The position numbers and the translations under genes were made by a program. From assembly GCA_034716235.1 (NCBI GenBank), contig JAYEHH010000032.1:370-64369 (forward strand): a DNA stretch of 64,000 nt. Reading direction: 5' to 3'. Source of the DNA: Patescibacteria group bacterium. Its GTDB lineage: Bacteria > Patescibacteriota > Minisyncoccia > CAIUEV01 > JAHKAQ01. Of this stretch, positions 20,727 through 56,350 are shown piece by piece. A model generated the notes under the pieces. That model ran no database searches and was not told where the DNA came from. It saw nothing but the letters and a program-made list of their open reading frames with translations. Every line of letters starts with the position of its first letter. Within the stretch, counting starts at the first letter, position 1.

Positions 20727-20949
20727 TCAGATATATTAAAAATTAGGTGTTTAATTATTATCTTTCTCCTAGGATTACTTTGATTTCTTTTTTCCATATT
20801 GATAAATATTAAAAACTAAAAAGCAAATTCTTTTTGCAAATTTATTGTTATTATACTACCGTTTACCTTTTTGTAAAATTTTAATTTTATTTTATTTTTA
20901 AAATCTGCTATGCTTTGAAAGGAAAAATTTAATTATTAAACTAAAATTT

Positions 20950-21219
20950 ATGGCTTATTCATTGGAAAATCCTAAGAGATTTAATAGGATACCCGATCAT
21001 ATTTTTGAGAGAATAGCATATAACGCTTTGAATATGATAGAGAAAGACAAAAAAGCCGAAGCCTTGAAAGTGTTAGAAGATGAAAAATTTAGAAAAAAAG
21101 CTACTCAATTCTGGGAAGGAAAATTTATTGGAGATGATTCAACAAAAGCCGAGATTGAATTGGCAAAGGGATTAAAAATAAGATTGGAAGAAGAGCTTAA
21201 AGACAATGATTTAACTTAA
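20950..21219 (+). CDS. Hypothetical small charged protein
   Basis: 89-aa ORF in an otherwise non-coding gap; no recognised motif. Confidence 0.35.
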   Translation: MAYSLENPKRFNRIPDHIFERIAYNALNMIEKDKKAEALKVLEDEKFRKKATQFWEGKFIGDDSTKAEIELAKGLKIRLEEELKDNDLT

Positions 21220-21243
21220 TAAAGATTATAGATATTTTTTAAA

Positions 21244-21290
21244 CTAAAAAAGCCCGCCTCACTATTTAAAAAAATAGATAAAGCGGACTT
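21244..21290. terminator. Possible bidirectional terminator: imperfect hairpin flanked by A6/T6 runs, between the small ORF and the 23S 3' end
   Basis: aaaaaaGCCCGCCTCACTATTT aaaaaa ATAGATAAAGCGGAC tttttt. The stem is imperfect. Confidence 0.3.
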
Positions 21291-21632
21291 TTTTCAATTC
21301 TCTAAAGTAATATAATCTCCGTAAATTAGCTAAAAACAAATTAATTGCGGTAAACGATCTATTAGTAATGCTTGGCTGAACGTGTTACCACGCTTACACC
21401 TACATCCTATCAACCTCGTCATCTTCGAGGAGATCTAAGCCTAATCTTGGGTTGGGCTTCGCGCTTATATGCTTTCAGCGCTTATCCACATCCGACTATA
21501 GCTACCCAGCAATGCCCTTGGTAGGGACAACTGGTACACCAGAGGTCGATTCATCCCGGTCCTCTCGTACTAGGGATGAGATCCCTCAAGCTTTCTCGCG
21601 CCTATGGAAGATAGGGACCAACCTGTTTTACA

Positions 21633-21664
<32 letters not shown>

Positions 21665-21679
21665 TTGGCGAACAGCCAA

Positions 21680-21726
<47 letters not shown>

Positions 21727-22364
21727 AGTAGCGAACAGCCTCGTCTATATGAGCTATCGGAGGCTACCACTCTGTTATCCCCGGGGTAACTTTTATCTGC
21801 TGAGCTTCCGCGATCCTACGATCCACGGTCGGATCACTAAATCCCGCTTTCGCGACTGCGCGACCTATAAGTCTTGCAGTAAAGCCGGCATCTGCTTTTG
21901 CGCTATCAGTCCGATTTCCATCCGGACCTAGCCGACCTTTGTGAACGACTCCGTTACAATTTGGGAGTCGAGCGCCCCACTCAAACTACCCACCAGACAC
22001 TGTTCCCGAGCTGGTGTTTAGTTACCTCTGGTAAATTTCACTGTTTCACATTTAATCAAGAAATCCCCAAAACATAGCTAAACATCAGCTCAAGGTTAGA
22101 ACTACACGATTCACAGGGTGGTATTTCACTGATGACTCCATCTATCCCAAAGGATAAATCTCAAAGTCTCCCACCTATACTGAGCAATAAATTGTATAGA
22201 TCAATGTCAAGCTGTAGTAAAGCTCCACGGGGTCTTTCCGTCTTTCCATAGGCAAACGGCATCTTTACCGCTACTGCAATTTCACCGGGTCCTTCGTTGA
22301 GACAGTCTCCAAGTCGTTACCCCATTCGTGCAGGTCTGAACTTACCAGACAAGGAAATTCGCTC

Positions 22365-22722
22365 TGTTTTGTTAATCTTTATGTCACCATAAAGCACGGA
22401 CTATATCTTTCCGCTAAATTTAAGTCAAAAAATTTAGGCGGATTCAGCGTTTAGTCTCTGAGGATTCTAAAAATCTTTTTTAGTCTTTCCTGCTGATTAT
22501 CTGGCACCTCGGATCTTTTCCGAGAATTACTGATAACTTTTTTACTTGGCATAGCTTTATAAAAATCTATGGAATAACTATACCATAGTAGTCTCAGATT
22601 TTCCAGATTTTCCAGCATATAGCTGAATGTTTTAGGACATCTTAATAATTTAAGATAGGCAGCGTTAATAATATAATTGTTCCAGTCCTTTTGGAATCTA
22701 AATATTAAATTCCAAAACCTTA
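22365..22722 (-). other. ~357-nt insertion in 23S between AAGGU and AGCGAAAUUCC (E. coli ~1917 region): candidate ORF-less group I intron or intervening sequence
   Basis: Core flanks align with E. coli 23S; the inserted sequence has no rRNA homology and contains internal repeats (cagattttccagattttccag) and hairpins. Confidence 0.5.
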
Positions 22723-22914
22723 GAACAATTATAGTTATTGCTGACGTTCACCGGGGCTTCAGAGATTGGCGTTAACCGCTCTCGTTAACCTTCCGGCACT
22801 GGTCAGGGGTCAGCCCCTATACATCCCCTTACGGGTTAGCAGGGACCTATGTTTTTGATAAACAGTCGCCCGGAGTCTTTAGCTGTGGCCGACGAATGTA
22901 CTGAATGGTGAATC

Positions 22915-23213
22915 CGAACTAGATAATTATCTGGTTCGGATTGTATGTGGGTTATTAATATTTTATTATGCTTTCTAACAAAGCGTTGCTAGGGTGCATA
23001 AAACGGTGACAATCGTCCAAAGTAGAAAGCCTATTAAAGGCATCTCTGCTAGGCCAATTGCCGTGCTCATCATCTTCTTTGTTCTTCCTTTCATATTGAT
23101 CCTCCTCCTCTAATTTCAATTTAAAAAACATAATTTACCCACACTTACCTTTTTTATTTTTTCTCCTTTCCTAAATCCATTTAGATTTCTTGGATTTAGA
23201 TTTTAAAGTTCAA
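22915..23213 (-). other. ~300-nt expansion of 23S helix 63 closed by a 15-bp inverted repeat (gtactgaatggtgaa / ttcaccattcagtac)
   Basis: Flanks align to E. coli 23S ~1700-1750; perfect inverted repeat at 22900-22915 and 23213-23229. Confidence 0.6.
22975..23094 (-). CDS. 39-aa hydrophobic peptide ORF (MKGRTKKMMSTAIGLAEMPLIGFLLWTIVTVLCTLATLC) inside the 23S helix-63 insertion, in rRNA sense, with GGAGGAGGA SD
   Basis: Manual translation of the minus strand: GGAGGAGGAtcaatATG...TAG. Basic N-terminus plus a single transmembrane-like segment, as in type I toxins. Confidence 0.3.
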   Translation of the reverse strand: MKGRTKKMMSTAIGLAEMPLIGFLLWTIVTVLCTLATLC

Positions 23214-24453
23214 TTCACCATTCAGTACACTGTCGGCAGGCCTTATCCCGAAGTTACGGCCGCTATTTTGCCGAGTTCCTTAACGAAGGTTCTCCCGTTC
23301 ACCTTGGGCTACTCGCCCTACCCACCTGTGTTGGTTTAAGTACGGATTAAACCTAAATATTTTCACAAAGCTTTTCCAGGAAGTCTATTCGCTCGAATCT
23401 GTTCCACTTGCGTTTCACATTTTTCCGCACCTTTTAAAAAGATGAAGAAACGTCAAACCATTAAGACGCTCAAGTTAGCTGACTTCGCACTTTGCTACAA
23501 CTTAGATTTAAGTCAAGGAATATTAACCTTGTGCCCATCGACTACGCTTTTCAGCCTCGCCTTAGGACCGACTAACCCTGGGCTGATTATCATCGCCCAG
23601 GAAACCTCAGGTTTTTGGTGGAAAGGAATCTAACCTTTCTTGCGGTTACTCATACCAACATTCTCTCTTCCATTAGCTCCACTAAAACTCACATTTTAGC
23701 TTCACAGCGCATGGAATGTTCTCCTACCCCGCCATACTCTAAAAAGAATATGACAGCCATAGTTTCGGTACTATGTTTGAGCCCCATTATATCTTCGGCG
23801 CGGAACGACTAGACTAGTGAGCTGTTACGCACTCTTTAAAGGAATGGCTGCTTCTAAGCCAACCTTCTAGCTGTTTAAGAAGTTCTACATCCTTTTCCAC
23901 TTAACATAGATTAGGGACCTTAACTAATGGTCTGGGCTGTTTCCCTTTCGTAAATGAAGCTTAGCCCCCACTTACTGACTCGTTAGACTTGTATATTGGA
24001 ATTCGGAGTTTGGTTGAGTGCCCTAGACAAAAGTCATGGATACTCATTCAGTGCTCTACCTCCAATACCAACTATCTAACGGCTATACCTAGATATATTT
24101 CGGAGAAAACCAGCTATCGCCGAGTTCGATTAGCATTTCACCTCTAACCACAGCTCATCCCAGCGTGTTGAACGGCGCTTGGGTGCGGACCTCCACCGCT
24201 TTTTAAGGCGGCTTCATCCTGGCCATGGCTAGCTCACTCGGCTTCGGGTCTGACCCTAACGACAGGGGGCGCCACTTAAGACTCGCTTTCGCTGCGGCTC
24301 TTCCGCCTAGACGGATTAACCAAGCCGTTAAAATCAACTCGTTGGTTCGTTCTGCAAAAAGCACGCGGTCACCGGCTCAAAAAAAACTTGAGCGGGCTCC
24401 CACTCGTTGTAAGCACACGGTTTCAGAAACTATTTCACTTCCCTTTCGGGATA

Positions 24454-24495
<42 letters not shown>

Positions 24496-25401
24496 AAAGT
24501 GTATTTAGTCTTACCGGGTTAGTACCGGCAAATTCACCTGGAATTTCTCTAGTTCCAGGCTACTCAAGATAAAATAACTCAGAGTGATTAATTGTTTTCG
24601 CCTACAGGACTTTTACCTTCTAAGGTAAGCCTTTCCAGGCATTTTTGGCTAACAACTAATGCTTTTTACTCTGCCAATACTAAAAGTTGTAAAAGCACAA
24701 TAAAATTATACTTTTACAATTTCAGTTCGGACGCTATTGAACTTATTACCCTCAGTAAAAACTGAGTTTGGACTTTTCCCCGTTCGCTCGCCGCTACTTA
24801 GGGAATAACTATTGTTGTTTTTTCCTTCGGCTACTAAGATGTTTCAATTCGCCGAGTATGCTTTTTACTCCTATGTATTCAGAGTAAAATTCTATTCAAA
24901 AATGAATAGAGGGTTTCCCCATTCGGAAATTCCCGGATCAAAGCTTGCTTGACAGCTCCCCGAGACTTTTCGCAGCCTGCTACGCCCTTCATCGCCACTT
25001 TGTACCAAGGCATCCACCATATGCTCTTATAACCACAATTTATTAGTGTTTTTAGCTAATTCACAAAGATTATTTGTAAATTAATTGCAATCACTTAAAT
25101 ACCATTTTGCCTAATAATTGTTTTTAACCACAATCTCCAAACAACTATTATTAAAATAAATTGTTAAAGTCCATTATGTGGCCTAAAAGGTAGTTTTTAA
25201 AAATAAAAACCGCTTTTCAAGCCGCTAATTCTTTAAAATAAATTAGACCCAAAAACTAGCCAAGGAACAGCTCTTAATAAATTCTCAATAAAATAATACT
25301 ATAAAAATTATTATAGCAATAAATAAGTTAGTGTCAACTGAATGTAAACCAACCTCTAATCTCTAAATTAATAAATAGACAATTCAGAGCTTATAATTTC
25401 T

Positions 25402-41613: not shown

Positions 41614-41843
41614 AGTTCATAAAGTGACTAGCTACTAAGTAGCTAGTCATTCCCGTGCCTGTCTGCCGTGAGGTAGAAAGGCAGGAATCCCGGTACGTCT
41701 AGACAATTCCTTGCCAAGTTAGTTTCTTCTAAATTTGCTTGGGACCCCCGCTGGAGTTTATCCCGTACTTGATACGGGGCGGGAATGACAGGGGAAAAAG
41801 CTGGTTGGAGTTTTACCCAGTAGATGTGGGACGGGAATGACCA
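41614..41843. repeat. Repeat copy R4 (mosaic, partly inverted relative to R1) immediately 3' of uvrA
   Basis: Begins with gttcataaagt and the palindrome gactagctacttagtagctagtc. Modules cccgccccgtatcaagtacgggataaactccagcggg and cgtctagacgtaccgggattcc are in inverse orientation to R1; the gggaatgacaggggaaaaagctgg module is direct. Confidence 0.75.
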
Positions 41844-42305: not shown

Positions 42306-45047
42306 ATGCAATCAACAAAACCTAAAATAAAACCAATAAGTTGTTCTCAGTGCAAAGGAGCTGGTTGGATTGGAGAAATGAACAATACTTGCCCTGCTTG
42401 CAAGGGAATTGGCTATGCAGAAGAAGTGCGTGGAGTCCAACTTTATTGGGGAAGAAAGATGCGAGGCATGCCCCCTTCCCTTAGAAAATCTCTGGCTAAT
42501 TTTTCTTGGATTGTTAAAACAGTGACTTCTAGTCTTTGTGCCCTATTTATTTTCATTGGATTGATAAATTTGATTGATAATCTCAAAGGACATCCCAATT
42601 TGACCTTTGACTTTAATTTAATTTTTGACATTTTCTTCGCCGGCTATGCCACGGCCCCTCTCTGGCTAGGGATTGTATTATTAATAATTCTTTATTTCCA
42701 CAAAGCTATTTATCAAAAACCAGAAATTATCTCTTTTGATAATCCATACTATTCTTTCGTTTTAACCGAAAATTTAAATGAGATAGCCAAACCTAGTACC
42801 TCCACAATAGATATCTCCAAGTCAGCAAGTACAGCCACAATAAAGGTAATCAATACTGCTTTAGATTCAGCTCTTAAACACAAACAAAATCCTCACTTGA
42901 TTCATCTACTTTTTTCCTTGATGCAGAATAAAGAGATAGTAGAGTTATTTTTTAAACTAGAGATACCACCGAAAGCTTTTTTAGAAGATGTCGCTAAAGT
43001 GTTGGGAAAAATAGAACCACTAAATGCCTCTGCAGCTTTAAATGGTAACTTTAAAAAATACTTGCTAAAAACTTTCTGGAGCGCCCTGACCGCTGAAAGC
43101 TCTTTTATAAAACCGGCTCACCTCTTACTGGCCATTATGGAATCTAGAGATTTAAAGCAAGTACTCAACAAATATGCTGTTAAGGCAGATGACTTCCAAA
43201 ATATTTTACTTTGGATGAAATATAAGAACATAAGATCGACCAACTTCTTGAGCAGGGATTCTTTTCAAAAGCCTCCTCACCATATTATGAATAGAAGTTG
43301 GAGTGCGACAGTCACTAAGACATTAGATCAATTCAGTACCGACATAACCGATTATGCCCGAGTAGGAATGTTGCTTCCACTTGTTAATAGAAAGCGAGAA
43401 ATAAGAATGATAACTCGGGTTCTTCAGCGAAGTGCTAAAAACAATGCCTTAATTATTGGCGAGGAAGGAAGCGGACGAGATGCTATTGTTAGAGGAATAG
43501 CTCGTAAAATAATCAAAAATGAAGTTCCTTCTTCTTTATTTGATAAAAGAATTGTTAAATTAAATTTGGGAGCTTTAGGAACTGGCTCTGATGGTGAACT
43601 CTTGAAAAGAAGGATTGAGGTCATAATGCAGGAAGTGGTCCGAACTCAAAATGTAATTATTTATATTCCCAATATTCACGAATTGGCCAAGATTCAAAAT
43701 TCTGCCTCCTTAGATATAATTAGTTTTCTAACTCCTCTTTTTTCTAAAAGAGTTATCCAAATTATTGGATCTACAACCCCTCAAGCCTATCGAGAAATTG
43801 TTGAGCCTCGGGGAGGATTCTCTCAGACTTTTGATATTATAAAAGTAAAAGAACTATCACCGGAACATTCCTTGAAAGTTCTTTCCATTCAAGTTCCTCT
43901 ACTAGAAAGAGAAAACAATGTTTTAATTTCTTATCGGGCTTGCCAAGAAGCTATTCAACAATCCAACCAATTCATTGTTAATCGCCTACTACCTCAAAAA
44001 GCTCTGAATGTTTTAACGGAAGCTATTGTGCGAGCCAAAGATGTGAAGGGAAAGAATTTAGTGACCGAAGCAGAAATTCAAGAAGTATTTTCTGAAAAGA
44101 CGGGCATCCCCATTACAAAAATTGGACAAGGAGAAGCTGAAGAATTATTGAAACTAGAAACAAAAATTAGAGCCAAGGTGGTTGGACAAGAGCTGGCCGT
44201 AAAAAATGTAGCGGACGCAATCCGAAGAATGAGGGTGCGCATTGGCGAAAAAGAAAGACCGATAGCTGTTTTTATGTTTCTGGGCCCCACAGGAGTTGGC
44301 AAGACTGAATTAGCTAAAACTTTAGCGGAAATATACTTTAAATCTCGTAAGAATATGATTCGTATTGATATGAGTGAATTATCCAGCCCTTATGATGTAG
44401 AACGAATGATTGGCGGTCCTAATAGCAATAGGGCTGGATTATTAACTGGCAAGGTGCGTCGCAACCCTTTCTCTCTGATTTTGTTAGATGAATTTGAGAA
44501 AGCCGATCGTGCTATCTGGGATATCTTCCTGCAAATTTTTGATGACGGCCGGGTAACAGACGGGAAAGGAAGGGTAGTAAATTTCACCAACACAATTATT
44601 ATTGCTACTTCCAATGTGGGCTCAAGAATAATTTTGGAAAAACTTCAAGGAGGCCAAAGTAATAAAATAATTAAAGCATTAGTTAAAACAGAACTCTTGA
44701 AAATATTCCGCCCTGAATTTTTGAACCGCTTTGATGACATTATAACTTTCAATGCTCTTTCTCATGAAAATATTAAACAAATAGCAAAATTAGAGCTCAA
44801 GTCTCTTAATAAGAGATTAGAGGAAGAACAAGGAATTACCATAAAATTAACAGACGAAGCTCTGGATTATTTAGCCAAGATAGGTTATAGTCCTGAATTC
44901 GGAGCTCGCTTTCTTAAAAGAACCATCCGAGAAAAGATTGAAGATGTTCTGGTGATTGGTATTTTGAAGAAACAGCATAACCGAGGAGATATTGTTACTA
45001 TAACGAGAGAAATGCTAGAGAAACCAGGAAGAGTAGAAGGTTCATAA
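42306..45047 (+). CDS. Membrane-anchored ClpC/ClpA-family AAA+ ATPase: N-terminal zinc ribbon (CSQC...CPAC) plus transmembrane segments plus Clp_N repeats; ATPase-dead D1, intact D2
   Basis: D1 Walker A is GEEGSGRDA instead of GEPGVGKTA and Walker B is YIPNIH instead of FIDEIH. D2 has GPTGVGKTELAKTLA and LILLDEFEKA. No long M-domain. Confidence 0.75.
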   Translation: MQSTKPKIKPISCSQCKGAGWIGEMNNTCPACKGIGYAEEVRGVQLYWGRKMRGMPPSLRKSLANFSWIVKTVTSSLCALFIFIGLINLIDNLKGHPNLTFDFNLIFDIFFAGYATAPLWLGIVLLIILYFHKAIYQKPEIISFDNPYYSFVLTENLNEIAKPSTSTIDISKSASTATIKVINTALDSALKHKQNPHLIHLLFSLMQNKEIVELFFKLEIPPKAFLEDVAKVLGKIEPLNASAALNGNFKKYLLKTFWSALTAESSFIKPAHLLLAIMESRDLKQVLNKYAVKADDFQNILLWMKYKNIRSTNFLSRDSFQKPPHHIMNRSWSATVTKTLDQFSTDITDYARVGMLLPLVNRKREIRMITRVLQRSAKNNALIIGEEGSGRDAIVRGIARKIIKNEVPSSLFDKRIVKLNLGALGTGSDGELLKRRIEVIMQEVVRTQNVIIYIPNIHELAKIQNSASLDIISFLTPLFSKRVIQIIGSTTPQAYREIVEPRGGFSQTFDIIKVKELSPEHSLKVLSIQVPLLERENNVLISYRACQEAIQQSNQFIVNRLLPQKALNVLTEAIVRAKDVKGKNLVTEAEIQEVFSEKTGIPITKIGQGEAEELLKLETKIRAKVVGQELAVKNVADAIRRMRVRIGEKERPIAVFMFLGPTGVGKTELAKTLAEIYFKSRKNMIRIDMSELSSPYDVERMIGGPNSNRAGLLTGKVRRNPFSLILLDEFEKADRAIWDIFLQIFDDGRVTDGKGRVVNFTNTIIIATSNVGSRIILEKLQGGQSNKIIKALVKTELLKIFRPEFLNRFDDIITFNALSHENIKQIAKLELKSLNKRLEEEQGITIKLTDEALDYLAKIGYSPEFGARFLKRTIREKIEDVLVIGILKKQHNRGDIVTITREMLEKPGRVEGS

Positions 45048-45150
45048 AGTTCATAAAGTTTGTAAAGTTCGTAAAGTTTTCAGGGTTAAGAATAGCGAGA
45101 TAAAGACTTGATAACTTTATAAACTTTACAGACTTTTCACTTTCTAACTT
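45039..45150. repeat. Repeat copy R5: 9-mer word array gttcataaa/gtttgtaaa/gttcgtaaa x4, then the inverted partner ctttataaactttacag and a ctttctaactttataacc module
   Basis: The same words recur at 41611, 46231, 46394-46428, 56143 and 1021-1040. Confidence 0.7.
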
Positions 45151-46238: not shown

Positions 46239-46515
46239 AGTTGAAAAGTTTAGATAATTGATAATTGACAATGGATAATTGATAATTAATGAATAATGAA
46301 TATCTTAAATAATTTTTCACCCAGAGGGTGATCCGCCTTCGGCGAGACAAGCCAGCCAGCCTCGCCGAGTCTAGGCGGGCCTCTGGCTGGCAATTAAGGA
46401 ATACTTTATAAACTTTACGAACCTTCTAACTTAACCATGAAGGCTTTATTAAATGGGTGGGAAGTGGTTTAATAAAAAGAGATAGAGAATAAGAATTATA
46501 TAATTAATTACTTAT
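46229..46515. repeat. Repeat copy R6 at the left boundary of the defense island
   Basis: Contains the gttcataaagt word, the ataattgacaatggataattgataat module, the inverted GGCTGGCTGG/tcgccgaaggcgg module (matches 1245-1285), ctttataaactttacgaaccttctaactt, then ttattaaatgggtgggaagtggtttaat...agaattatataattaattacttat. Confidence 0.75.
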
Positions 46516-46525
46516 ATTTAAAATT

Positions 46526-48343
46526 ATGCCAAATTATTTCGTCAATCAAAGAAATATTAGTGCGTTACTTCAAAACATTAAGGACGAAGATATTGTAATC
46601 CCAGAAATTCAGAGACCTTTTGTTTGGGAGAGTAAAAAAGTTCGTAATCTTATGGACTCATTGTATCAGGAATTTCCAATAGGTTATATTATTACATGGA
46701 AAAATCCAAATATAAGACTAAAAAATGGAAGAATGAGCGAGGGAAAACAAGTTATAATAGATGGACAACAAAGAATTACCGCTTTAATGGCTGCGATCTT
46801 GGGACGAGAAATTATAGACAAAGAGTATCAAAAAAAGAGGATTCGGATTTCCTTTAATCCATTGAAAGAAAAGTTTGAAACATTAACTCCTGTTATTGAA
46901 AAAAATAGTGAATGGATAAGCGATATTTCAGAATTTTTTAAAACTAGAAATAATATTTTTAATTTTACTGCTAATTTTTGTAAAAAAAATAATTTTACCG
47001 AAAAACAAAAAATCAAGACTCAGCAAAGTCTAACAAAATTACTAAACATGGAGGATAAGTTTATTGGAATTATTGAGCTTGATGCAAATTTAGATATTGA
47101 TGATGTAACGGAAATATTTGTTAGAATTAATGATGCTGGGACTCCCCTTTCACAAGCAGATTTTGCAATGAGTAAAATTGCCTCATACGAACCAACATCA
47201 GACCATTTGTTTGGAGTGAATTTAAGAAAGTCTATTGATTATTTTGCTCATCTATCTCAAACACCACATTTTCTTGAAGATATTGGAAGAAACGATAAAG
47301 AGTTTAGCCGAACAGAATATTTGCTAAAAATGAAATGGGCCGGGAAGGAATTGGATAATATATATAATCCAAACTATAAGGATATTTTAAGAGTAAGTTT
47401 CATTAAGGAATTTAATAGAGGGAAAATTAGCGATCTTGTGAAGCTTTTATCTGGACAAAATTTTAAAACAAGAAATTATGATCAAAAAATACAAGAGAAA
47501 TCATTCTTGGCTTTAAAAAATGGAGTCCTTGACTTTATAAATGAAAATCATTTTAAGAAATTCCTTATTATTTTACAATCAGCTGGAATTATTGATTCAA
47601 AACTTATTAATTCACAGAGCGTTCTAAATTTTGCCTATATTGTCTATTTAAAACTTAGAAAAGATGGAATGGCAAATAATTTAATTGGGAAATATACAAA
47701 AAAATGGCTTGTTCTTTCAATTTTGACTGAAAGATATTCAGCCTCACCAGAATCTACGATGGATAAGGATATTAAAGATATTAATAAATATGGAATTAAA
47801 AAAGTTATTGCAAAGATTGAAGAGGCGGACATGTCATCAACTTATTGGAATATTGGACTTGTACAAAATTTAAACAGGGCGATAATTTCAAGCCCATTTT
47901 TAAGCCTCTTTTTTATAGCACAGATATGCTCTAAGGATAAAGCTTTATTCTCCGAATCGGTTTTAATCGATCAACTCGTTAGCATAAAAGGAGACGTCCA
48001 TCATATTTTCCCCAAAAATTATCTTCAAAAAGCAGGGTTTGGAATAAGTAAATATAATCAAATTGCAAATTTTGTTTATTTACAACAAGAAGTAAATATA
48101 ACAATAGGAGATAAACCACCAGGACAATATTTTAGCCGAGCATTGAATCAATGTGATAATAAAACTTTGGATAGTGGAAGTATTGGAGAAATTACAGACA
48201 AGAAAAAATTGATAAAAAATTTAGAAATAAATTCTATCCCAACTGATATTTTTGAAATGGATATTACTAATTATGATGAATTTTTAGAAAAAAGACGGAA
48301 ATTAATGGCAAAGAAAATTGAAAAGTTTTATAAAAGTTTATAG
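46526..48343 (+). CDS. GmrSD-like type IV (modification-dependent) restriction endonuclease: N-terminal DUF262 (ParB-like NTPase) plus C-terminal DUF1524 (His-Me/HNH-like nuclease)
   Basis: PEIQRPFVW...IIDGQQRITAL (DGQQR hallmark of DUF262); C-terminal DVHHIFPKNY...N...N (DUF1524 signature); 605 aa. Confidence 0.75.
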   Translation: MPNYFVNQRNISALLQNIKDEDIVIPEIQRPFVWESKKVRNLMDSLYQEFPIGYIITWKNPNIRLKNGRMSEGKQVIIDGQQRITALMAAILGREIIDKEYQKKRIRISFNPLKEKFETLTPVIEKNSEWISDISEFFKTRNNIFNFTANFCKKNNFTEKQKIKTQQSLTKLLNMEDKFIGIIELDANLDIDDVTEIFVRINDAGTPLSQADFAMSKIASYEPTSDHLFGVNLRKSIDYFAHLSQTPHFLEDIGRNDKEFSRTEYLLKMKWAGKELDNIYNPNYKDILRVSFIKEFNRGKISDLVKLLSGQNFKTRNYDQKIQEKSFLALKNGVLDFINENHFKKFLIILQSAGIIDSKLINSQSVLNFAYIVYLKLRKDGMANNLIGKYTKKWLVLSILTERYSASPESTMDKDIKDINKYGIKKVIAKIEEADMSSTYWNIGLVQNLNRAIISSPFLSLFFIAQICSKDKALFSESVLIDQLVSIKGDVHHIFPKNYLQKAGFGISKYNQIANFVYLQQEVNITIGDKPPGQYFSRALNQCDNKTLDSGSIGEITDKKKLIKNLEINSIPTDIFEMDITNYDEFLEKRRKLMAKKIEKFYKSL

Positions 48344-48777: not shown

Positions 48778-48930
48778 GCTGAATCTAAAGTGGATTCCAT
48801 AAGTTGCATATTCTTTTAATCAAAAATACATTATTTATTTCAATAAGTATAGTAAGTTATAATTTAAAATAGCTGAACAGAATTCTTAATTTATAATCTA
48901 GAATTTGTAATCTAAAATCTCTCAAGACTT

Positions 48931-48970
48931 GATTAAATGGGTAGAAAGTGGCTTAATGGGGAGGAGAATT
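48931..48970. repeat. Repeat copy R7 (gattaaatgggtagaaagtggcttaatggggagg module)
   Basis: Near-identical to 55962-55997 and similar to 46447-46476. Confidence 0.7.
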
Positions 48971-49095: not shown

Positions 49096-52014
49096 ATGAG
49101 AGTTAATATCAAGGAAATCAGGAGAATAATTAAATCTGATGTTATTAAGCCTAGAATTGAAGAATATTTACAGAAAAGAAAAAGTGGAGACGAGCAGCAA
49201 TGGAACGAGGAATATAAATGGGATCCAAAAATATTGCCTGCAACACATAAGGAATTTATCAAGGAAAGAGACATTCTTAAAAAAATTGAAATTCTTCAAA
49301 AAAATAATCCAAACGAAGGATCCTTTGTGAGTTATATGGACTTGGACGATCTCAATAAATTTGCTAAGGAAAAAACAAAGCAAGCCACAAAGTTGATGGA
49401 AAACTTATTGAATGGAAAAAAGAATATTGCTAAACGCATTGATTATTTTAGGGATGAGACGAAAAAAGTGGATGAAAAAATTAAATTAGGAACACCCTTA
49501 TTTGGTTACATTATGGCGGTATTCAATTCCAGTAAATATCCAACTTATAAAAATTCAACCTTTATGGCTCTCAAAAAGCTCATTGGAAAAAGACAAGAAT
49601 GGAGTTCTATGAGTGTTGGCGAGAAATATCAAACATTTACTGACCTGTGCCATGAAATGGGCAAATTGCTGAAGCCAGAACTTGAAACTGTAAATATCAG
49701 AGGTATTGAGGTCAAGCCAGGAAGGACTGCTCTGGATGGTCAAGACTTTTTCTATATTCTTGAAGATCGTTATAATAGAGAGAGATATTTCCCCGAACTT
49801 GTTAAATTTCTTGAACAAGCCAAGGCAAGCAATCTTACAACAAAGCAATACCGAAAGGATTATATGAATTGTAAAGTGAGGATAAGTTTTGGAAAAGTAA
49901 GCTCTGCACAAACACCCTGGATTAGTTTTTTATCCGGTGACAATAAATTACAGAAGGGAATTTATCCAGTCTTTCTTTTTTATAAAAGTATAAATAAATT
50001 ATTTCTAGCATATGGTATAAGTGAAATAAGTGAACCCGAACAAATTTGGAACATTGTTGGAAAAGAAACAATTGAAGATTATTTTATTGAAAATTTCAAC
50101 TCGGAGCCAGAGAGATATGGCAGTTCTTATGTTTATAAAGTATACGATGTGAAAAACATTGATAATTTAAATCAAGAACAAATGGAAAATGACTTGAAAA
50201 ACATAATTAATGAATATAAAAAACAACTTGAAGAAACTCCAAAAATTCAATACTGGACAATTTCTCCGGGGGAAGATGCAAAGCACTGGGAGGAGTTCTA
50301 TCAAAAAGGGATCATTGGAGTCGGCTGGGATAAAACAAAAGATCTCTTACAATATAAAAATAAAAAAGAAATTCAAAAGGTTGCGAAAAACTTATTTGGA
50401 TTAAAAACTAATGCCAGCAATACTGCCCAAGCTTGTTTGGATTTTTCTAGAACAATGAGAATTGGGGATATTTTAATTGTCAAAAAGGGAATTCATGAAT
50501 TGGTCGGCTATGGAAAGGTAACTTCAGATTATATTTATGATGCAAGGAGGAAGACATATAAACACATACGAAATGTGATGTGGATTAAAAAGGGAAATTG
50601 GAAGATAGATAAAGAGATTATTCATCCTGCATTAAAAACTTTAACTAACATAACTCCGTATGAAGGTTATGCCCAAGAATTATTGGGCATAATGGACGAA
50701 AGTAATATTGATGGAAAAAATTACTGGTGGATTAATGCAAATCCAAAAATTTGGAATTTAACAGAGGCGGAAGTCGGTTCCAAACAAATATATACAAGCC
50801 ATAATGAGGCCAAGAATCCCAGAAGAATTTATAGTTATTTTAAAGAGGTTAAGCCGGGCGACATTATGTTTGGATATATAACAAGTCCTGACAAACAAAT
50901 TACTTCAATATGCAAAATAACCAAAGGGTTATATGAGAACAAAGAGGGGGAAGTGATTGAATTTGAAAAAACTGAGACTTTACAAAATCCAATTTTGTGG
51001 AATGAATTGAAAAATGAAGAAAGTTTGAAAAATTGCGAACCAATTAAGAACAATCAAGGAAGTTTGTTTAAAATAAGCAAAGAAGAATATGAAACCATTA
51101 GATATTTGATTGATGAGAAAAATATTTTCACGAAAGAAAAAATTGAAAAATATATAAAAAAGGATGCTCTAGACAAATTATTTATTTCAGAAAATGAATT
51201 TGATAATATAGCCCAAAATATTGAAAGAAACAAAAATATCATTCTGCAAGGCCCTCCCGGAGTTGGCAAAACTTTTCTTGCAAAAAGGTTGGCTTATTAT
51301 TTGATTGGATACAAAGACGTAAACAAGGTACAATCTATCCAATTTCATCAATCATATTCATATGAAGATTTCATGCAAGGTTACAGGCCCAATGAAAAAG
51401 GAAAATTTGATCTTGTTAATGGAATATTTTTCAGATTTTGTCAGAAAGCTAAAAATGATCCAAACAATAAGTATTTCTTCTTGATAGATGAAATAAATAG
51501 AGGAAATCTGAGCAAAATTTTTGGTGAATTAATGATGCTTATTGAAAAAGATAAACGGGGTAAAGATTTTGCTATACCTTTAACATATTCCCAAGATGAC
51601 AGAGAAACATTTTATGTGCCAGAAAATGTTCATTTGATTGGGACTATGAACACAGCTGATAAATCACTTGCGATGGTAGACTATGCTTTGCGAAGAAGAT
51701 TTAATTTTATTTTTCTGAAACCAAAATTTAATAACAGCTTTAGTTCATTCCTAGAAAATATGGGAGTTAAAAAGATTATTATTAAAGCGATAGTTGAAAA
51801 AATAAGCAAACTAAATGAGATGATAATTAATGATGATAATAATCTTGGAAAAGGATATCAAATTGGTCATAGTTTTTTCTGTCCTCAGAGAAAAAGTAAA
51901 TATGACGAAGAATGGTTTAAGAATATTGTCAAATACGAAATTGAACCATTGCTCGAGGAGTATTGGTTTGATAGTGAGAAAAAATTTAATGAAGCGAAGA
52001 ATTTATTAAACTGA
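49096..52014 (+). CDS. mcrB: McrB-like GTP-specific AAA+ motor with a long N-terminal extension: DUF3578-like (MrcB-N) module plus two EVE/PUA-like modules
   Basis: AAA+/GTPase motifs GPPGVGKTF, FFLIDEINRGN, GTMNTADKS (NTAD signature of McrB), RRRF. N-terminal VRISFGKVSSAQTPWISFLSGDNKLQKGIYPVFLFY fits the DUF3578 pattern. An EVE-like segment runs YWWINANPKIW...GDIMFGYITSPDKQITSICKI...; an earlier similar module runs YWTISPGEDAKHWEEF...GDILIVKKG. Confidence 0.8.
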   Translation: MRVNIKEIRRIIKSDVIKPRIEEYLQKRKSGDEQQWNEEYKWDPKILPATHKEFIKERDILKKIEILQKNNPNEGSFVSYMDLDDLNKFAKEKTKQATKLMENLLNGKKNIAKRIDYFRDETKKVDEKIKLGTPLFGYIMAVFNSSKYPTYKNSTFMALKKLIGKRQEWSSMSVGEKYQTFTDLCHEMGKLLKPELETVNIRGIEVKPGRTALDGQDFFYILEDRYNRERYFPELVKFLEQAKASNLTTKQYRKDYMNCKVRISFGKVSSAQTPWISFLSGDNKLQKGIYPVFLFYKSINKLFLAYGISEISEPEQIWNIVGKETIEDYFIENFNSEPERYGSSYVYKVYDVKNIDNLNQEQMENDLKNIINEYKKQLEETPKIQYWTISPGEDAKHWEEFYQKGIIGVGWDKTKDLLQYKNKKEIQKVAKNLFGLKTNASNTAQACLDFSRTMRIGDILIVKKGIHELVGYGKVTSDYIYDARRKTYKHIRNVMWIKKGNWKIDKEIIHPALKTLTNITPYEGYAQELLGIMDESNIDGKNYWWINANPKIWNLTEAEVGSKQIYTSHNEAKNPRRIYSYFKEVKPGDIMFGYITSPDKQITSICKITKGLYENKEGEVIEFEKTETLQNPILWNELKNEESLKNCEPIKNNQGSLFKISKEEYETIRYLIDEKNIFTKEKIEKYIKKDALDKLFISENEFDNIAQNIERNKNIILQGPPGVGKTFLAKRLAYYLIGYKDVNKVQSIQFHQSYSYEDFMQGYRPNEKGKFDLVNGIFFRFCQKAKNDPNNKYFFLIDEINRGNLSKIFGELMMLIEKDKRGKDFAIPLTYSQDDRETFYVPENVHLIGTMNTADKSLAMVDYALRRRFNFIFLKPKFNNSFSSFLENMGVKKIIIKAIVEKISKLNEMIINDDNNLGKGYQIGHSFFCPQRKSKYDEEWFKNIVKYEIEPLLEEYWFDSEKKFNEAKNLLN

Positions 52015-52019
52015 TTTTT

Positions 52020-53057
52020 ATGGAGATACCTATAATAAATATATATTACCTACTTTGTTATGCTTGGGATAAACTTGAAGAAAAAGATGTTGTTAACGTA
52101 AAAGAAGAAGATCACACTAAGTTACTTGATCTTTTTGCAAAGATATTAATTAACGGAATGAATCATCTAATCAGGAAAGGATTGGACAGAAATTACATTG
52201 ATATCAAAGAAGATTCAAAGAGAATTAAGGGAAAGATTAATTTCAATGAAACACTGAAAAGGAACTTGTTGGTACGATGTGAAATTAGTTGCGAATTCGA
52301 CGATTTTAGTTACAACATTCTTCACAACAGAATTATTAAAACAGTGATTGGAGGATTAGTTAGAAATGATGAGGTGGATCAGGAGCTGAGGGACGAATTG
52401 AATAAAATCTATCGATTATTGAAAGAGATTGATGAGATAAGGCTTTCCTCAAAAATATTTAATGCTGTAAAATTAAACAGAAATAATTACTTTTATGATT
52501 TTCTGATCAAGGTATGTAGGCTGATATATGAAAATTATTTAATCACGGAAGAAACGGGCAAGGGGAAATTTAGAGATTTTATAAGAGACGAAGTAAAAAT
52601 GAGAATGCTCTTCGAAGATTTTGTTAGGAATTTTTATAGAAAAGAACAAAACGAATTTTCTGTAACAAGGGAATTGATTGCATGGAATGTTAAGGCTGAG
52701 AATGATGAAGATATGAGTTATATGCCGAGAATGGAAACCGATATATCGCTAAAATCAAAAAGTAAAAAAATAATAGTTGATACAAAATATTATAAAGAGG
52801 CCATTAAGGGTCAATATAAGAATAAAGAAAAGTTAATATCCAATAATTTATATCAAATGTTTGCCTACATAAATAATATAGAAAACAAAGGAGGTCTAAA
52901 TAAAAAATGTACTGGAATATTACTTTACCCAACAGTTAAAAAAGATTTGGATTTAAAATATAAAATACCAAATCATAACTTACAAATTAAAACAATAAAT
53001 CTAAATCAAGAATGGAAAAAAATTCATAAAGACTTATTAAGTGTAATTATGACTTGA
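52020..53057 (+). CDS. mcrC: McrC-like PD-(D/E)xK nuclease partner of McrB
   Basis: Starts 5 nt after the mcrB stop; McrC signature D-x-K in IIVDTKYYK with upstream acidic residues and QMFAY. Confidence 0.7.
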   Translation: MEIPIINIYYLLCYAWDKLEEKDVVNVKEEDHTKLLDLFAKILINGMNHLIRKGLDRNYIDIKEDSKRIKGKINFNETLKRNLLVRCEISCEFDDFSYNILHNRIIKTVIGGLVRNDEVDQELRDELNKIYRLLKEIDEIRLSSKIFNAVKLNRNNYFYDFLIKVCRLIYENYLITEETGKGKFRDFIRDEVKMRMLFEDFVRNFYRKEQNEFSVTRELIAWNVKAENDEDMSYMPRMETDISLKSKSKKIIVDTKYYKEAIKGQYKNKEKLISNNLYQMFAYINNIENKGGLNKKCTGILLYPTVKKDLDLKYKIPNHNLQIKTINLNQEWKKIHKDLLSVIMT

Positions 53058-53131: not shown

Positions 53132-54349
53132 ATGCAACAATTTTCTCATTCAAAATTACAAACCTATGAAAGATGTCCCCTGCAATATAAGCTCCAATAC
53201 CTCACCAATCTAAAGCCGGAGCAGGAAGAGACAATAGAAGCCTTTGTGGGTAGCCGGGTCCATGAGACTCTGGAACTTCTTTATCGTGATCTACTGCGAA
53301 CAAAACTAAATTCTTTAGCTGATCTTTTAAAGTTCTATGATAAAATTTGGAGAGTAAACTGGAGCAATGACATAGTTATCAATAATAAAGAATTTAAAAA
53401 GAAACATTACTTTGATCTTGGAAAAAAATGTATTAAAAATTATTATGAAAAATATAGCCCTTTTGATCAGGATCAAACAATTGGAATTGAGAAGAGGATT
53501 AATTTACAATGGGGAGACATTGGAATAGTGGGATACATTGACCGTTTAGCTAGAGACAGCCAGGGTATTTATTCTATCCATGATTATAAAACGGGTGCCA
53601 TCATGGAACAGAAGTACGCAGATCAAGATCGTCAGCTAGCCTTGTATTCAATTGCCGTTAAGGAAAACTTTAGAGAGGCCAAAGAGGTAAGGTTAATTTG
53701 GCATTTTGTAGCTTATGGCGAAGATGTTATCTCGAAACGGACAAATAAGGAATTGGCTAAGCTAAAAAATGAAATGCTGTCCCTTATTGAAGAAATTAAT
53801 CTTGCAGAAAAAGAAGATAATTTTCCAGCCAAAGAAACTAAATGTGAATGGTGCGGATATTGGCAGTATTGCCCAAAGAAAAAGCATTTATTCAAAACAG
53901 AAAAACTTCCAAAAAATAAATACCTACAAGATAGTGGAGTAAAACTAGCAAAAAAGTATATTAATTTATCACAACAAAGAACTGTCATAAACAAACGAGC
54001 TAAAACTAAGGGGGAAATAATTAAGCAAGAAATGCTAAAGATTCAAGAAGCTATCCTAAAATATACCCAGAAACATAAAATAGATGTCTTGGCGGGAGAA
54101 AAAATGCTTGTAGCTATTAATAAGAGTAAGAACTATACCTTCCCTACAAAAACTACTGACATTGAAAAATACACTGAATTGGAAAATTTATTGAAAAAAA
54201 GTAAGTACTGGAACGGTGTATCTTCCGTCAATGCCCAAAAAGTTAGTCAATTATTGGAAGATGATGGGATTGACAGTAGATTAAAGCAGAAAATTATTGC
54301 CCTTGCTCCACTTGAAGAATCTACTAACTTATCAATCAGAAAAAAGTAA
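53132..54349 (+). CDS. Cas4/RecB-like PD-(D/E)xK nuclease with 4-Cys cluster and ~150-aa C-terminal extension
   Basis: N-terminal SKLQTYERCPLQYKLQY, GYIDRL, IHDYKTG (D..D-x-K), QLALYSIA (QxxxY), CEWCGYWQYC. Confidence 0.7.
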   Translation: MQQFSHSKLQTYERCPLQYKLQYLTNLKPEQEETIEAFVGSRVHETLELLYRDLLRTKLNSLADLLKFYDKIWRVNWSNDIVINNKEFKKKHYFDLGKKCIKNYYEKYSPFDQDQTIGIEKRINLQWGDIGIVGYIDRLARDSQGIYSIHDYKTGAIMEQKYADQDRQLALYSIAVKENFREAKEVRLIWHFVAYGEDVISKRTNKELAKLKNEMLSLIEEINLAEKEDNFPAKETKCEWCGYWQYCPKKKHLFKTEKLPKNKYLQDSGVKLAKKYINLSQQRTVINKRAKTKGEIIKQEMLKIQEAILKYTQKHKIDVLAGEKMLVAINKSKNYTFPTKTTDIEKYTELENLLKKSKYWNGVSSVNAQKVSQLLEDDGIDSRLKQKIIALAPLEESTNLSIRKK

Positions 54350-54910
54350 ATGGAGCTTCTAGAGAAAACCATCAAGCATATAGAAAAAAAGAAAAGGGAT
54401 AATTCTAATAAAAAAGAGCTATTGGCAAACAACAGACATCCTAAATCTGCCCATTATTATAAAAAGGAATGGTCATTTATTGAGTTTGTACCAGCTAGAG
54501 AAAATATTACCTATCAGTTACAGTATTTAGAGTATATGACCAATTTATACAATGACTACCAAATGTATTTAACGATTGAATCTTTACATTGCAAGAACAT
54601 GATGATTACCATTGCCTCAATAATGGAATGTGCCCTCTATGACCTCTTGTATCAGTTAGCCAGAAAAAGGTCAGATATTGGTTTTGATGAAAGAGAAGAT
54701 TTTTTAGCAATGATTGATTTAGGGTTTCGGGGAGGTTTACTTAATGAACAAATGAAAAATTTGCTACATGAGCTTCGGAAAGTTAGAAATTTTGTGCATA
54801 TTTCTAATTTGGAGCATAAAGAATACGAAGCTTATGATATTGAGCAAGTAAACAACTATATTATACTTTTAGATAATTTTAAGGATAGAGTTAGGGAGAA
54901 GATTAAATGA
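54350..54910 (+). CDS. Hypothetical protein translationally coupled (TAAATG) to the upstream nuclease; possible HEPN-like Rx4-6H motif
   Basis: C-terminal LHELRKVRNFVHI fits R-x6-H; the start codon abuts the upstream stop. Confidence 0.3.
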   Translation: MELLEKTIKHIEKKKRDNSNKKELLANNRHPKSAHYYKKEWSFIEFVPARENITYQLQYLEYMTNLYNDYQMYLTIESLHCKNMMITIASIMECALYDLLYQLARKRSDIGFDEREDFLAMIDLGFRGGLLNEQMKNLLHELRKVRNFVHISNLEHKEYEAYDIEQVNNYIILLDNFKDRVREKIK

Positions 54911-54950
54911 AAATAATTAGGGTTATACTCCCCTGCTGCATTCTTTCTTA

Positions 54951-54976
54951 AAAGAATTACGTAATTAATTACTTAC
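54951..54976. repeat. Repeat copy R8 (aagaattacgtaattaattacttacc module)
   Basis: Identical 26-mer at 56013-56038; variant at 46491-46515. Confidence 0.7.
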
Positions 54977-55031
54977 CAGTAACCCCACTTCCAAAAACAA
55001 TTCTAAAATAACATAGATTAATAGAATCTGA

Positions 55032-55922
55032 ATGCCTCCAAAACCTAAAAAAATAGATGTTGATGTTAATGATTTTTTCAGAAGAATTGTTAGATTAAAA
55101 AAGAAAAAGAAATTTGCAAATTTCTTAAAATTTATTAAACGAGTACCAAAACAATCCCCTTTAAATGACTCTCTCGTATTCATTCAAAATTGTAATTGTT
55201 TTTATTATGCAACAGCTAAGCAATGGAAGAATAAATTTGGAAGAAAAGTAAAAGATGATGCGCAACCATTGATCGTATTAGTTCCATTTGGTCCCGTTAT
55301 GTTCGTATATGATATTAAGGATACCAAGGGAAAATCTCTAGATAAAAAAAATTTGTTTTGGTGGAAAGAAAAAGAAGGATATTTTCACGAAAGTATTTAT
55401 TTGAACACAGCCAATAACTGTAAGAATGTTGGGATAGATTATCGTATTGGTAAAAAAGAACAGTATATATTTAAAGAGGGTCTACAGACTTTCGGATATG
55501 CTGGAAAAAATATAAATAATAACTTACGTAAAATTGAACTACATCCTAAATATCAAAATGGAATCAATATAAAAGAAACTTATGGAGTATTATGCCATGA
55601 GTTGGCTCATCATTTGCTTGGGCATTTGGGAGAAATAAAAATTGAGATACCAGTGCAGATGAGTTTATTTTCATCTAAGGTCAACGTCCGTCACAAAAAA
55701 ATAGCTCCGAGTGGTAGAGAGTCTATTGATGATAATATTAAAGAGCTTGAAGCCGAATTAACTGCTTGGATAGTATTTTCCTGTTGGGGTATGGAAAAAA
55801 ACTCAGAAGCATACATGGCAAATTGGCTGATAGATAGCAATGATGCAAAAGAAATAAACTATCCCTTAGTTTTTAAGGTAGCTGGAACGATTAAGCGAAT
55901 GGCGCTCGGTAAAATTGCGTAA
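55032..55922 (+). CDS. ImmA/IrrE-type (M78-like) HExxH zinc metallopeptidase with N-terminal region weakly resembling the ArdC-N ssDNA-binding domain
   Basis: CHELAHHLLGH (HExxH...H); N-terminal FYYATAKQWKNKFGRKVKDDAQPLIVL resembles the ArdC-N TFKQA..GG.VRKGEKG..VV consensus. Confidence 0.5.
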   Translation: MPPKPKKIDVDVNDFFRRIVRLKKKKKFANFLKFIKRVPKQSPLNDSLVFIQNCNCFYYATAKQWKNKFGRKVKDDAQPLIVLVPFGPVMFVYDIKDTKGKSLDKKNLFWWKEKEGYFHESIYLNTANNCKNVGIDYRIGKKEQYIFKEGLQTFGYAGKNINNNLRKIELHPKYQNGINIKETYGVLCHELAHHLLGHLGEIKIEIPVQMSLFSSKVNVRHKKIAPSGRESIDDNIKELEAELTAWIVFSCWGMEKNSEAYMANWLIDSNDAKEINYPLVFKVAGTIKRMALGKIA

Positions 55923-55961
55923 AGAAATATATCAGTACAATTATCCCAAACATACTATTTG

Positions 55962-56038
55962 GCTTGATTAAATGGGTAGAAAGTGGCTTAATGGGGAGGG
56001 AAATAGAGAAAAAGAATTACGTAATTAATTACTTACCA
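55962..56038. repeat. Repeat copy R9 (both R7 and R8 modules) at the right edge of the island
   Basis: gattaaatgggtagaaagtggcttaatggggagg...aagaattacgtaattaattacttacc. Confidence 0.75.
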
Positions 56039-56142: not shown

Positions 56143-56350
56143 CGTAAAGTATAACTTCTAACGTTTCGTCTAGGCGTCCCGGGATTTCCGTCCGGCATGC
56201 GCCAGATTACATTTTCCTGCCTACCGGCAGGCAGGAAGCTTTAGCGAAGACTGGTCATCCCCTGGATGAAAAATTGAAAATTAGAAATTGAAAATTATAA
56301 TAAAGTATTCCTTAATTGAAAATTGTGAATTGAAAATTGAAAATTCTCTT
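56143..56350. repeat. Repeat copy R10 upstream of valS: gttcgtaaagt word, cgtctaggcgtcccgggatttccg, exact ttttcctgcctaccggcaggcagg module, then a ttgaaaat word array
   Basis: The 24-mer ttttcctgcctaccggcaggcagg is identical to 1189-1212. Confidence 0.75.

Follow-up and report, generated by a model that had tools for sequence, protein, structure and literature searches.

The anti-restriction protein ArdC of the IncW plasmid R388 (PDB 6I89 and 6SNA) contains an N-terminal ArdC-N domain (PF08401) and a C-terminal gluzincin metalloprotease domain (MPTase-PolyVal, PF18818), in which H201/E202/H205, E229 and Y255 provide the metal ligands, the catalytic base and a tyrosine that stabilises the substrate. 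It is encoded in the leading region of the plasmid, and in the recipient it counteracts restriction by type I systems (PMC7213743). Other described proteases of comparable build or setting are ImmA/IrrE (PprI; Peptidase_M78/COG2856), with the substrates ImmR and DdrO; CapP/CapH, which regulate cyclic-oligonucleotide-based antiphage signalling systems (CBASS) and other defences; and the Spartan/SprT/Wss1 proteins, in which a DNA-binding module precedes a small gluzincin. The window analysed here, a 64,000-nucleotide stretch of DNA from a Patescibacteria group bacterium, contains a coding sequence at 55032–55922 of the plus strand whose product, together with the family around it, is named FAM. 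It is the last gene of a 10-kb defence island between tsaD (TsaD) and valS (valyl-tRNA synthetase, ValRS). We found that FAM is a large, mainly chromosomal sister family of ArdC and that its genes are placed in an operon-like manner with restriction-type systems.

The GC content is 34.7%, and because the genome is AT-rich, an open reading frame (ORF) of 296 residues is improbable as a chance product. The database search returned 63 homologues with E-values down to 1e-156, one of them identical and annotated as a hypothetical protein of a Patescibacteria metagenome-assembled genome, and a second 79% identical (E 1e-156). In the alignment of 54 relatives the residues N45, Q52, W65, P88, V92, G155, H189, E190, H193, G197 and H198 as well as E238, E240, A241, E242 and Y261 were invariant, and H189/E190/H193 were still invariant across 141 more distant cluster representatives. 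Because of these homologues and invariant residues, the gene is regarded as established: it is real, intact and under selection. The original prediction had offered a mobile-element or anti-restriction relic as one of its possibilities; this does not agree with an intact gene, invariant catalytic residues and a large family whose members repeatedly share operons with restriction, BREX and DISARM-like genes, and the relic or pseudogene reading was rejected.

None of the family libraries tried gave FAM a name at threshold. The sole Pfam matches were sub-threshold, to the SprT-like family PF10263 (19.7 bits against a cut-off of 25.6) and to MPTase-PolyVal (12.4 bits); Pfam gave no Peptidase_M78 (PF06114) match for FAM itself and no ArdcN (PF08401) match at E ≤ 10. 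ArdcN, Peptidase_M78 and MPTase-PolyVal were the profiles with which the original prediction had proposed to check the protein. The NCBIfam scan returned no match, none of the 5,027 models of PADLOC-DB v2 matched at E ≤ 10, and the matches in PHROGs, to an anti-restriction phrog (E 0.0027) and a metallo-protease phrog (E 0.03), were weak. The sequence search of PDB with the single protein returned nothing, and the search with the family profile returned only a chance-level HExxH match, to ZMPSTE24.

Structure prediction had also been proposed as a check. The confident AlphaFold2 model built on the family alignment (predicted local distance difference test score, pLDDT, 85.2; predicted template modelling score, pTM, 0.82) found significant Foldseek matches in PDB only to three ArdC chains of plasmid R388, with alignments of 307–318 columns that span the full length. 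When the C-terminal domains were compared by hhalign, the FAM profile matched the R388-type ArdC alignment with 95–96% probability (E 4e-8 and 2e-9), and H189/E190/H193, E238 and Y261 of FAM aligned with H201/E202/H205, E229 and Y255 of ArdC. The likeness to ArdC consists of the C-terminal gluzincin site with its HExxH motif, glutamate as third ligand and conserved tyrosine and, by predicted fold, probably of the two-domain build, and on the site residues (H189, E190, H193, E238 and Y261) the C-terminal half looks like an active gluzincin protease. The ArdC-like label given to this protein before is defensible, and the motif resemblance from which it had been derived was not significant. Similarly, the motif HELAHHLLGH, which had been called an M78/ImmA-IrrE zinc site, is present at residues 189–198 with invariant H189/E190/H193, and the family match expected with it was not obtained for FAM. 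Weak M78 matches were seen among relatives (16 of the 54 close and 104 of the 141 wider ones, best E 5.8e-8), and a relative from Aliarcobacter is labelled “ImmA/IrrE family metallo-endopeptidase” by the Prokaryotic Genome Annotation Pipeline (PGAP). The M78/ImmA-IrrE label therefore holds for FAM at the clan level, and the nearest characterised protein is ArdC.

The ArdC-likeness of the N-terminal half is suggested by the predicted fold and by weak ArdcN matches in 7 of about 195 relatives (3 of 54 close and 4 of 141 wider, best E 3e-5). This domain carries a net charge of +18 as against +2 for the protease half, which is compatible with nucleic-acid binding and is no proof of it, and FAM appears to have a shorter version of the long beta-hairpin of ArdC-N. 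Among the wider relatives, one each also had a Pfam match to DUF499 (E 1.4e-8), a weak match to D12 adenine methylase and an HD domain, which are possible fusions to restriction-related modules; DUF499 is an ATPase family treated in a 2026 survey of bacteriophage exclusion (BREX) systems. A 107-residue phage protein (BFVD A0A8S5QJB8, Siphoviridae sp. ctezl47) matched part of the FAM model at 34% identity over 96 columns, with a template modelling (TM) score of 0.68 on the target, and may be a stand-alone phage copy of one FAM domain.

The profile search of 1.84 billion cluster representatives returned 8,713 proteins at E ≤ 1e-3 and 622 at E ≤ 1e-30. Nearly all of the best 150 relatives cover the full two-domain profile, and some of them bear 100–260 additional N-terminal residues. 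In a scan of one genome per species, relatives were found in Elusimicrobia, Alphaproteobacteria, Verrucomicrobiota, Acidobacteriota, Bacteroidota, Bacillus, Deinococcus, Methylotuvimicrobium and others. When the single FAM sequence was used in tblastn, a search of limited sensitivity, 3 of 72,556 plasmid records and 0 of 50,697 phage records matched. For comparison, canonical ArdC gave more than 7,500 matches, and among the matches listed both Pfam domains were present. Two features that define ArdC are missing from FAM, namely an ArdC-N domain recognisable by sequence and carriage on a conjugative element.

The neighbourhoods of the relatives differ from that of ArdC, as FAM genes are found in restriction, BREX and DISARM-like (defence island system associated with restriction-modification) operons. 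The close homologues occupied nine independent contexts, all in defence islands: directly 3′ of a type I hsdR with a gap of 56 nt; near a type III system; adjoining a GmrSD gene, a NERD gene and a SNF2-PLD helicase and methylase pair; ahead of a type I system; among type I, GmrSD, Shedu-like and TIR genes; downstream of a type I system and an AbiU2 gene; and adjoining a CRISPR-Cas locus. The neighbours in 89 loci were clustered without prior labels and the recurrent clusters were then annotated. The commonest were HsdM and HsdR (16 loci each), HsdS (14) and GmrSD (10). A complete BREX type 1 set in the order BrxA-BrxC-PglX-[FAM]-PglZ-BrxL was found in four loci of different phyla and, truncated, in a fifth; pairs of HKD-SNF2 helicase and type IIG methylase were found in five loci, DrmMI-like sets, DpdE/DrmD-like sets and DruE-like helicases also recurred, and integrases and resolvases were present in five loci each. 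Type III restriction-modification (R-M) systems, GmrSD and, in the window, McrBC are further placements of the family.

A restriction, BREX, DISARM-like or Druantia-like marker was present within 5 kb of FAM in 33 of 83 loci, and in 20 loci the immediate neighbour was itself a restriction-type marker (hsdR, hsdS, pglX, pglZ, GmrSD and the like), at distances of −46 to +56 nt in most of the 20 and up to 442 nt in a few. The overlaps with pglX, pglZ and hsdS were of 4 nt, and the pglX and pglZ junctions measured −4 to +23 nt, except for a computed overlap of 259 nt on the pglZ side of one locus (L069), which is probably an effect of ORF calling. FAM is often the terminal gene of a type I R-M operon, and in unrelated genomes it is co-directional with, closely spaced to and within or at the end of R-M, BREX and DISARM-like operons. 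Its placement is operon-like, beyond mere co-residence in islands. In the neighbour-joining tree near relatives stand beside different systems, for example type I, DruE-like and DrmMI-like ones in one small clade; therefore, FAM is linked to a class of systems and not to one enzyme, and strict co-evolution with one restriction type was rejected. Judged by the Pfam and PADLOC content of the loci, this class would be that of large nucleoside triphosphate (NTP)-dependent, mostly methylation-guided, DNA-translocating restriction machines. Besides restriction, BREX and mobile-element genes no conserved neighbour family was found in the 83 loci, and two downstream neighbours of equal size (230 residues) in two loci were mutually unrelated and without Pfam domains. 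A relative on the 456-kb Microvirga megaplasmid pMVF16-5, annotated as ImmA/IrrE, lies in a defence-like cluster in which a very large DEAD/DEAH helicase and a UvrD-like helicase precede it and DUF3883 and DUF4365 genes follow. In the literature searched, which had subscription journals outside its coverage but took in the BREX survey and the “embedded defences” preprint of 2024, no account was found of type I R-M or BREX loci with an embedded gene of ArdC-like or ImmA/IrrE (M78-like) type.

The 79% identical homologue matches the window at 82% nucleotide identity over exactly the coding sequence and nothing beyond, and it follows hsdR, whereas the copy in the window follows mcrBC; the FAM family moves as a single-gene module, independently of its flanks. 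The copy in the window lies between perfect direct repeats of 29 nt, the second of which is at 56010–56038 (0 expected by chance). Their core consists of three alternating AATTAC hexamers, and the palindrome of this cis-element, which FAM has in common with the other restriction cassettes of this genome, is AATTACGTAATTAATTAC. These repeats were not found in the loci of the 79% identical homologue. Unitigs from short reads broke at the 29-nt repeats, and a second contig of the same study (L017/L099, JAYEHE010000357.1), binned as Zixiibacteriota, was 100% identical to window positions 54852–56036 (1,185 nt) and diverged exactly at the element end into a cassette of HKD-SNF2 helicase, type IIG methylase and RNase H. 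This identity reflects either a strain-level cassette polymorphism or a binning error.

The downstream palindrome is preceded by a 42-nt promoter-like module in which TGG CTTAAT reads as an extended −10, and three copies of this module are present in the 64 kb, one ahead of the GmrSD gene, one ahead of mcrB and one 3′ of FAM. In the window the element is thus confined to the defence island. FAM itself is preceded by the palindrome only, without the module, and the scan for sigma-70 promoters and terminators around FAM performed no better than shuffles. The leader consensus is a −35 TTKATT, 17 nt, an extended −10 TGG-YTTAAT, about 20 nt and the palindrome AGAATTACGTAATTAATTACTTAC, often just before an ATG. 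An exact-match scan of Joint Genome Institute (JGI) metagenomes with the 23-nt core returned 89 copies on 74 contigs (loci L102–L175), often two or three per contig at distances of 250–3,600 nt, and in 84 of the copies the upstream sequence was long enough to look for the promoter-like module, which 45 of these have 18–22 nt upstream of the core. Among the ORFs that begin shortly 3′ of the element are homologues of GmrSD (4), HsdM (2), HKD-SNF2 (2), McrB, type III Mod, HsdR and RhuM, and the 74 contigs overall are rich in restriction genes. The element looks like a shared leader of defence cassettes in the lineage, made up of a promoter and an operator-like palindrome, and it could be a common operator (a regulator site), a junction for cassette exchange, or both.

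The remaining part of the island agreed with the restriction island that had been described around FAM, as Pfam recognised GmrSD, McrB, McrC and a PD-(D/E)XK nuclease (Table 1). The coding ends abut or nearly so along the series from McrB to ORF186 (gaps of 0–74 nt), which suggests a four-gene type IV module of McrB, McrC, nuclease and ORF186. In McrB two reader-type domains (MrcB_N and EVE) precede the AAA_5 motor. ORF186 contains the stretch RKVRNFVH, an R-x6-H arrangement reminiscent, by eye, of the HEPN motif, and a homologue of ORF133 is present on one of the element-bearing metagenome contigs (L133). The Rfam search of 45–57 kb gave no meaningful match, and since the tRNA search of the window found none, no tRNA attachment site is present in it. 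Short intergenic mosaic repeats rich in GC (>62%, in a genome of 35% GC) were noticed at 1075–1276, 41745–41794, 46314–46404 and 56160–56265; they have common segments in both orientations (for example 46317–46362 with 1279–1234, and 56212–56235 with 1190–1213) and are without Rfam match, and two of them lie on either side of the defence island. The entire island is also enclosed by a perfect inverted repeat of 19 nt, CAATTAAGGAATACTTTAT, at 46391–46409 and 56300–56318, and related motifs flank tsaD (45034–45059 and 46403–46428). The region of about 20727–25401 has no ORF of 120 residues or more and several GC-rich patches, and is probably a ribosomal RNA (rRNA) operon.

Table 1. Features of FAM, of the defence island and of the repeated element in the 64-kb window.
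Feature	Position	Strand	Basis or remark
FAM coding sequence	55032–55922	+	ATG start, 296 residues; ArdC-like two-domain metalloprotease
N-terminal domain, residues 1–150	55032–55481	+	basic; ArdC-N/BHD-like by predicted fold only
C-terminal gluzincin metalloprotease domain, residues 151–296	55482–55919	+	hhalign against ArdC alignment
HELAHHLLGH, residues 189–198	55596–55625	+	zinc ligands H189 and H193, catalytic E190
ELEAE “glutamate helix”	55743–55757	+	E238, predicted third metal ligand
Y261	55812–55814	+	predicted substrate-stabilising tyrosine; invariant
GmrSD-type type IV restriction enzyme	46526–48343	+	Pfam GmrSD_N, E 4.8e-33
ORF133, 133 residues	48376–48777	−	no Pfam or PDB match
McrB (EVE + MrcB_N + AAA_5)	49096–52014	+	Pfam
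McrC	52020–53057	+	Pfam
PD-(D/E)XK nuclease	53132–54349	+	Pfam PDDEXK_1, E 1.7e-32
ORF186, 186 residues, directly upstream of FAM	54350–54910	+	no Pfam or PDB match
29-nt palindromic element	54950–54978		AATTAC/GTAATT/AATTAC hexamers; end 54 nt 5′ of the FAM start codon
Composite element, 3′ of FAM	55963–56038		promoter-like part (TTGATT, 17 nt, TGG CTTAAT) and 29-nt palindrome
Promoter-like part, copy upstream of mcrB	48928–48969
Diverged composite element, upstream of GmrSD gene	46444–46517

The ArdC-like fold, the catalytic residues that are invariant or almost so in about 195 relatives, the basic N-domain, the operonic embedding, the promiscuity towards different systems, the rarity on plasmids and the absence from phages are the reasons for which FAM is proposed, tentatively and at a rough probability of 0.4, to be a co-encoded restriction-alleviation or safety device that acts on translocating restriction complexes, which would make it the host-side counterpart of the anti-restriction activity of ArdC. 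The N-domain would serve as a DNA tether for the protease. As with ArdC, Rad4 and Spartan, the DNA bound would probably be single-stranded or distorted, and such DNA is the ligand of the fold-sharing relatives ArdC, Rad4 BHD and Tc-38. The protease would then cut a DNA-bound protein of the neighbouring restriction machinery, which, given the neighbours, is the most economical target, so that translocating complexes engaging the cell’s own DNA could be removed or inactivated, for example when a new cassette is acquired, upon DNA damage or during replication. Proteolysis of DNA-bound EcoKI (HsdR) by ClpXP is the known mechanism of restriction alleviation (PMC11109961), and the logic proposed here, proteolysis of restriction complexes on unmodified self DNA, would be the same; the analogy is functional only, as ClpXP is a general housekeeping protease of unrelated fold and is not encoded with the R-M system.

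Several observations weigh against this proposal. The N-terminal resemblance to ArdC-N that had been read from a motif did not rise above chance: besides the missing ArdcN match, the N-domain profiles of FAM and ArdC-N aligned with a probability of 0.2% in hhalign, and local alignment with the ArdC-N of R388 was close to the shuffled control (z = 0.6 for FAM and z = 0.1 for the consensus sequences), so that homology of this domain to ArdC-N fails every sequence test run. The R388 ArdC mutant E229A, in which a metal ligand is changed, still supported conjugation; therefore, the protease is dispensable for the one known ArdC phenotype, which calls for caution with protease models. In a verrucomicrobial clade (L024–L026, L032, L034 and L041; FAM of 346–400 residues) the gene lies 3′ of a histidine kinase in a conserved neighbourhood of LOG, isoleucyl-tRNA synthetase (IleRS) and hybrid histidine kinase without defence genes; about 60% of the loci are without any marker of the limited defence-marker set, and the enrichment near defence genes was gauged only by comparison with generally known base rates. 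With type IV enzymes such as McrBC and GmrSD there is no methylase for which restriction would have to wait, and alleviation during establishment fits them less well. The function suggested for FAM comes solely from its fold and neighbourhood.

The alternative that FAM is selfish anti-restriction cargo, which helps an incoming island to survive transfer by blocking the restriction systems resident in its new host, is somewhat unlikely. ArdC being its closest structure speaks for it, as do the mobility of the gene independent of its flanks, the exchange of cassettes at a repeat junction that adjoins it, the integrases or resolvases beside several long-form relatives, and one relative that adjoins a Tn3 transposase on a conjugative megaplasmid. 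However, plasmids and phages, to which such a function would be of greatest benefit, hardly ever carry the family, a chromosomal gene is not expressible before the incoming DNA is established, and the tight embedding with overlapping codons between pglX and pglZ resembles that of a system component. No recurrent conjugation gene cluster was found among the annotated neighbour clusters, and a conjugative-element remnant was rejected for the same reason. Defence genes embedded in restriction loci are known from PrrC and PARIS, and FAM might likewise be an independent or backup defence. That it is a single-gene sensor protease triggered by phage single-stranded DNA or by anti-restriction proteins, the DNA mimics binding its DNA-binding domain, is unlikely, and the same is to be said of the step that would follow, the destruction of the inhibitor or of an essential host protein (abortive infection), as none of the PADLOC models matched and no toxin-like or effector partner was found. 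Less probable again is an “anti-anti-restriction” guard common to many restriction-type systems, in which the N-domain would be a bait for Ocr/ArdA-type DNA mimics or phage single-stranded DNA, the protease would destroy the inhibitor or trigger abortive infection, and the shared leader would mark lineage-wide exchangeable cassettes under one regulator; if true, the host would have taken over an anti-restriction fold and reversed its use.

The similarity in build to Spartan, SprT and Wss1 could mean that FAM is a general protease for DNA-protein crosslinks or another housekeeping task that merely tends toward variable regions. We consider this improbable, since the distribution is patchy and the positions in close relatives are non-syntenic, the gene is operonic with pglX/pglZ, hsdS, hsdR and GmrSD genes, and the third metal ligand is glutamate as in ArdC and not histidine as in Spartan, from which the DNA-binding domain differs too. 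The switch of ImmA/ImmR or IrrE/DdrO type that the original prediction had named as its other possibility, with a protease that cleaves an adjacent helix-turn-helix (HTH) repressor and thereby turns the island on, is very improbable. The proposed search for a partner Xre/HTH substrate found no HTH or other partner family recurrent beside FAM in the 83 loci, and ORF186 and ORF133, the two island ORFs without an assigned domain, gave no HTH match. FAM differs from ImmA/IrrE in having no adjacent HTH substrate gene and no M78 match, and its accessory domain is N-terminal and ArdC-N-like, whereas IrrE has HTH/GAF-like domains. It differs likewise from CapP/CapH, which are placed divergently upstream, as FAM has no CapH-like HTH partner and a different second domain and is located inside or at the 3′ end of operons.

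ArdC is known as a plasmid weapon against host restriction, and a chromosomal, conserved ArdC-like family that occurs across phyla in type I R-M, BREX, DISARM-like, Druantia-like and type IV loci reverses the expected ownership. FAM points to a protease layer of control or backup for restriction systems, and it is a concrete candidate for two open questions, how BREX avoids self-harm and how type I restriction is alleviated outside E. coli. In addition, the shared leader before dozens of restriction genes could expose a common regulator or a mechanism of cassette exchange in Patescibacteria.

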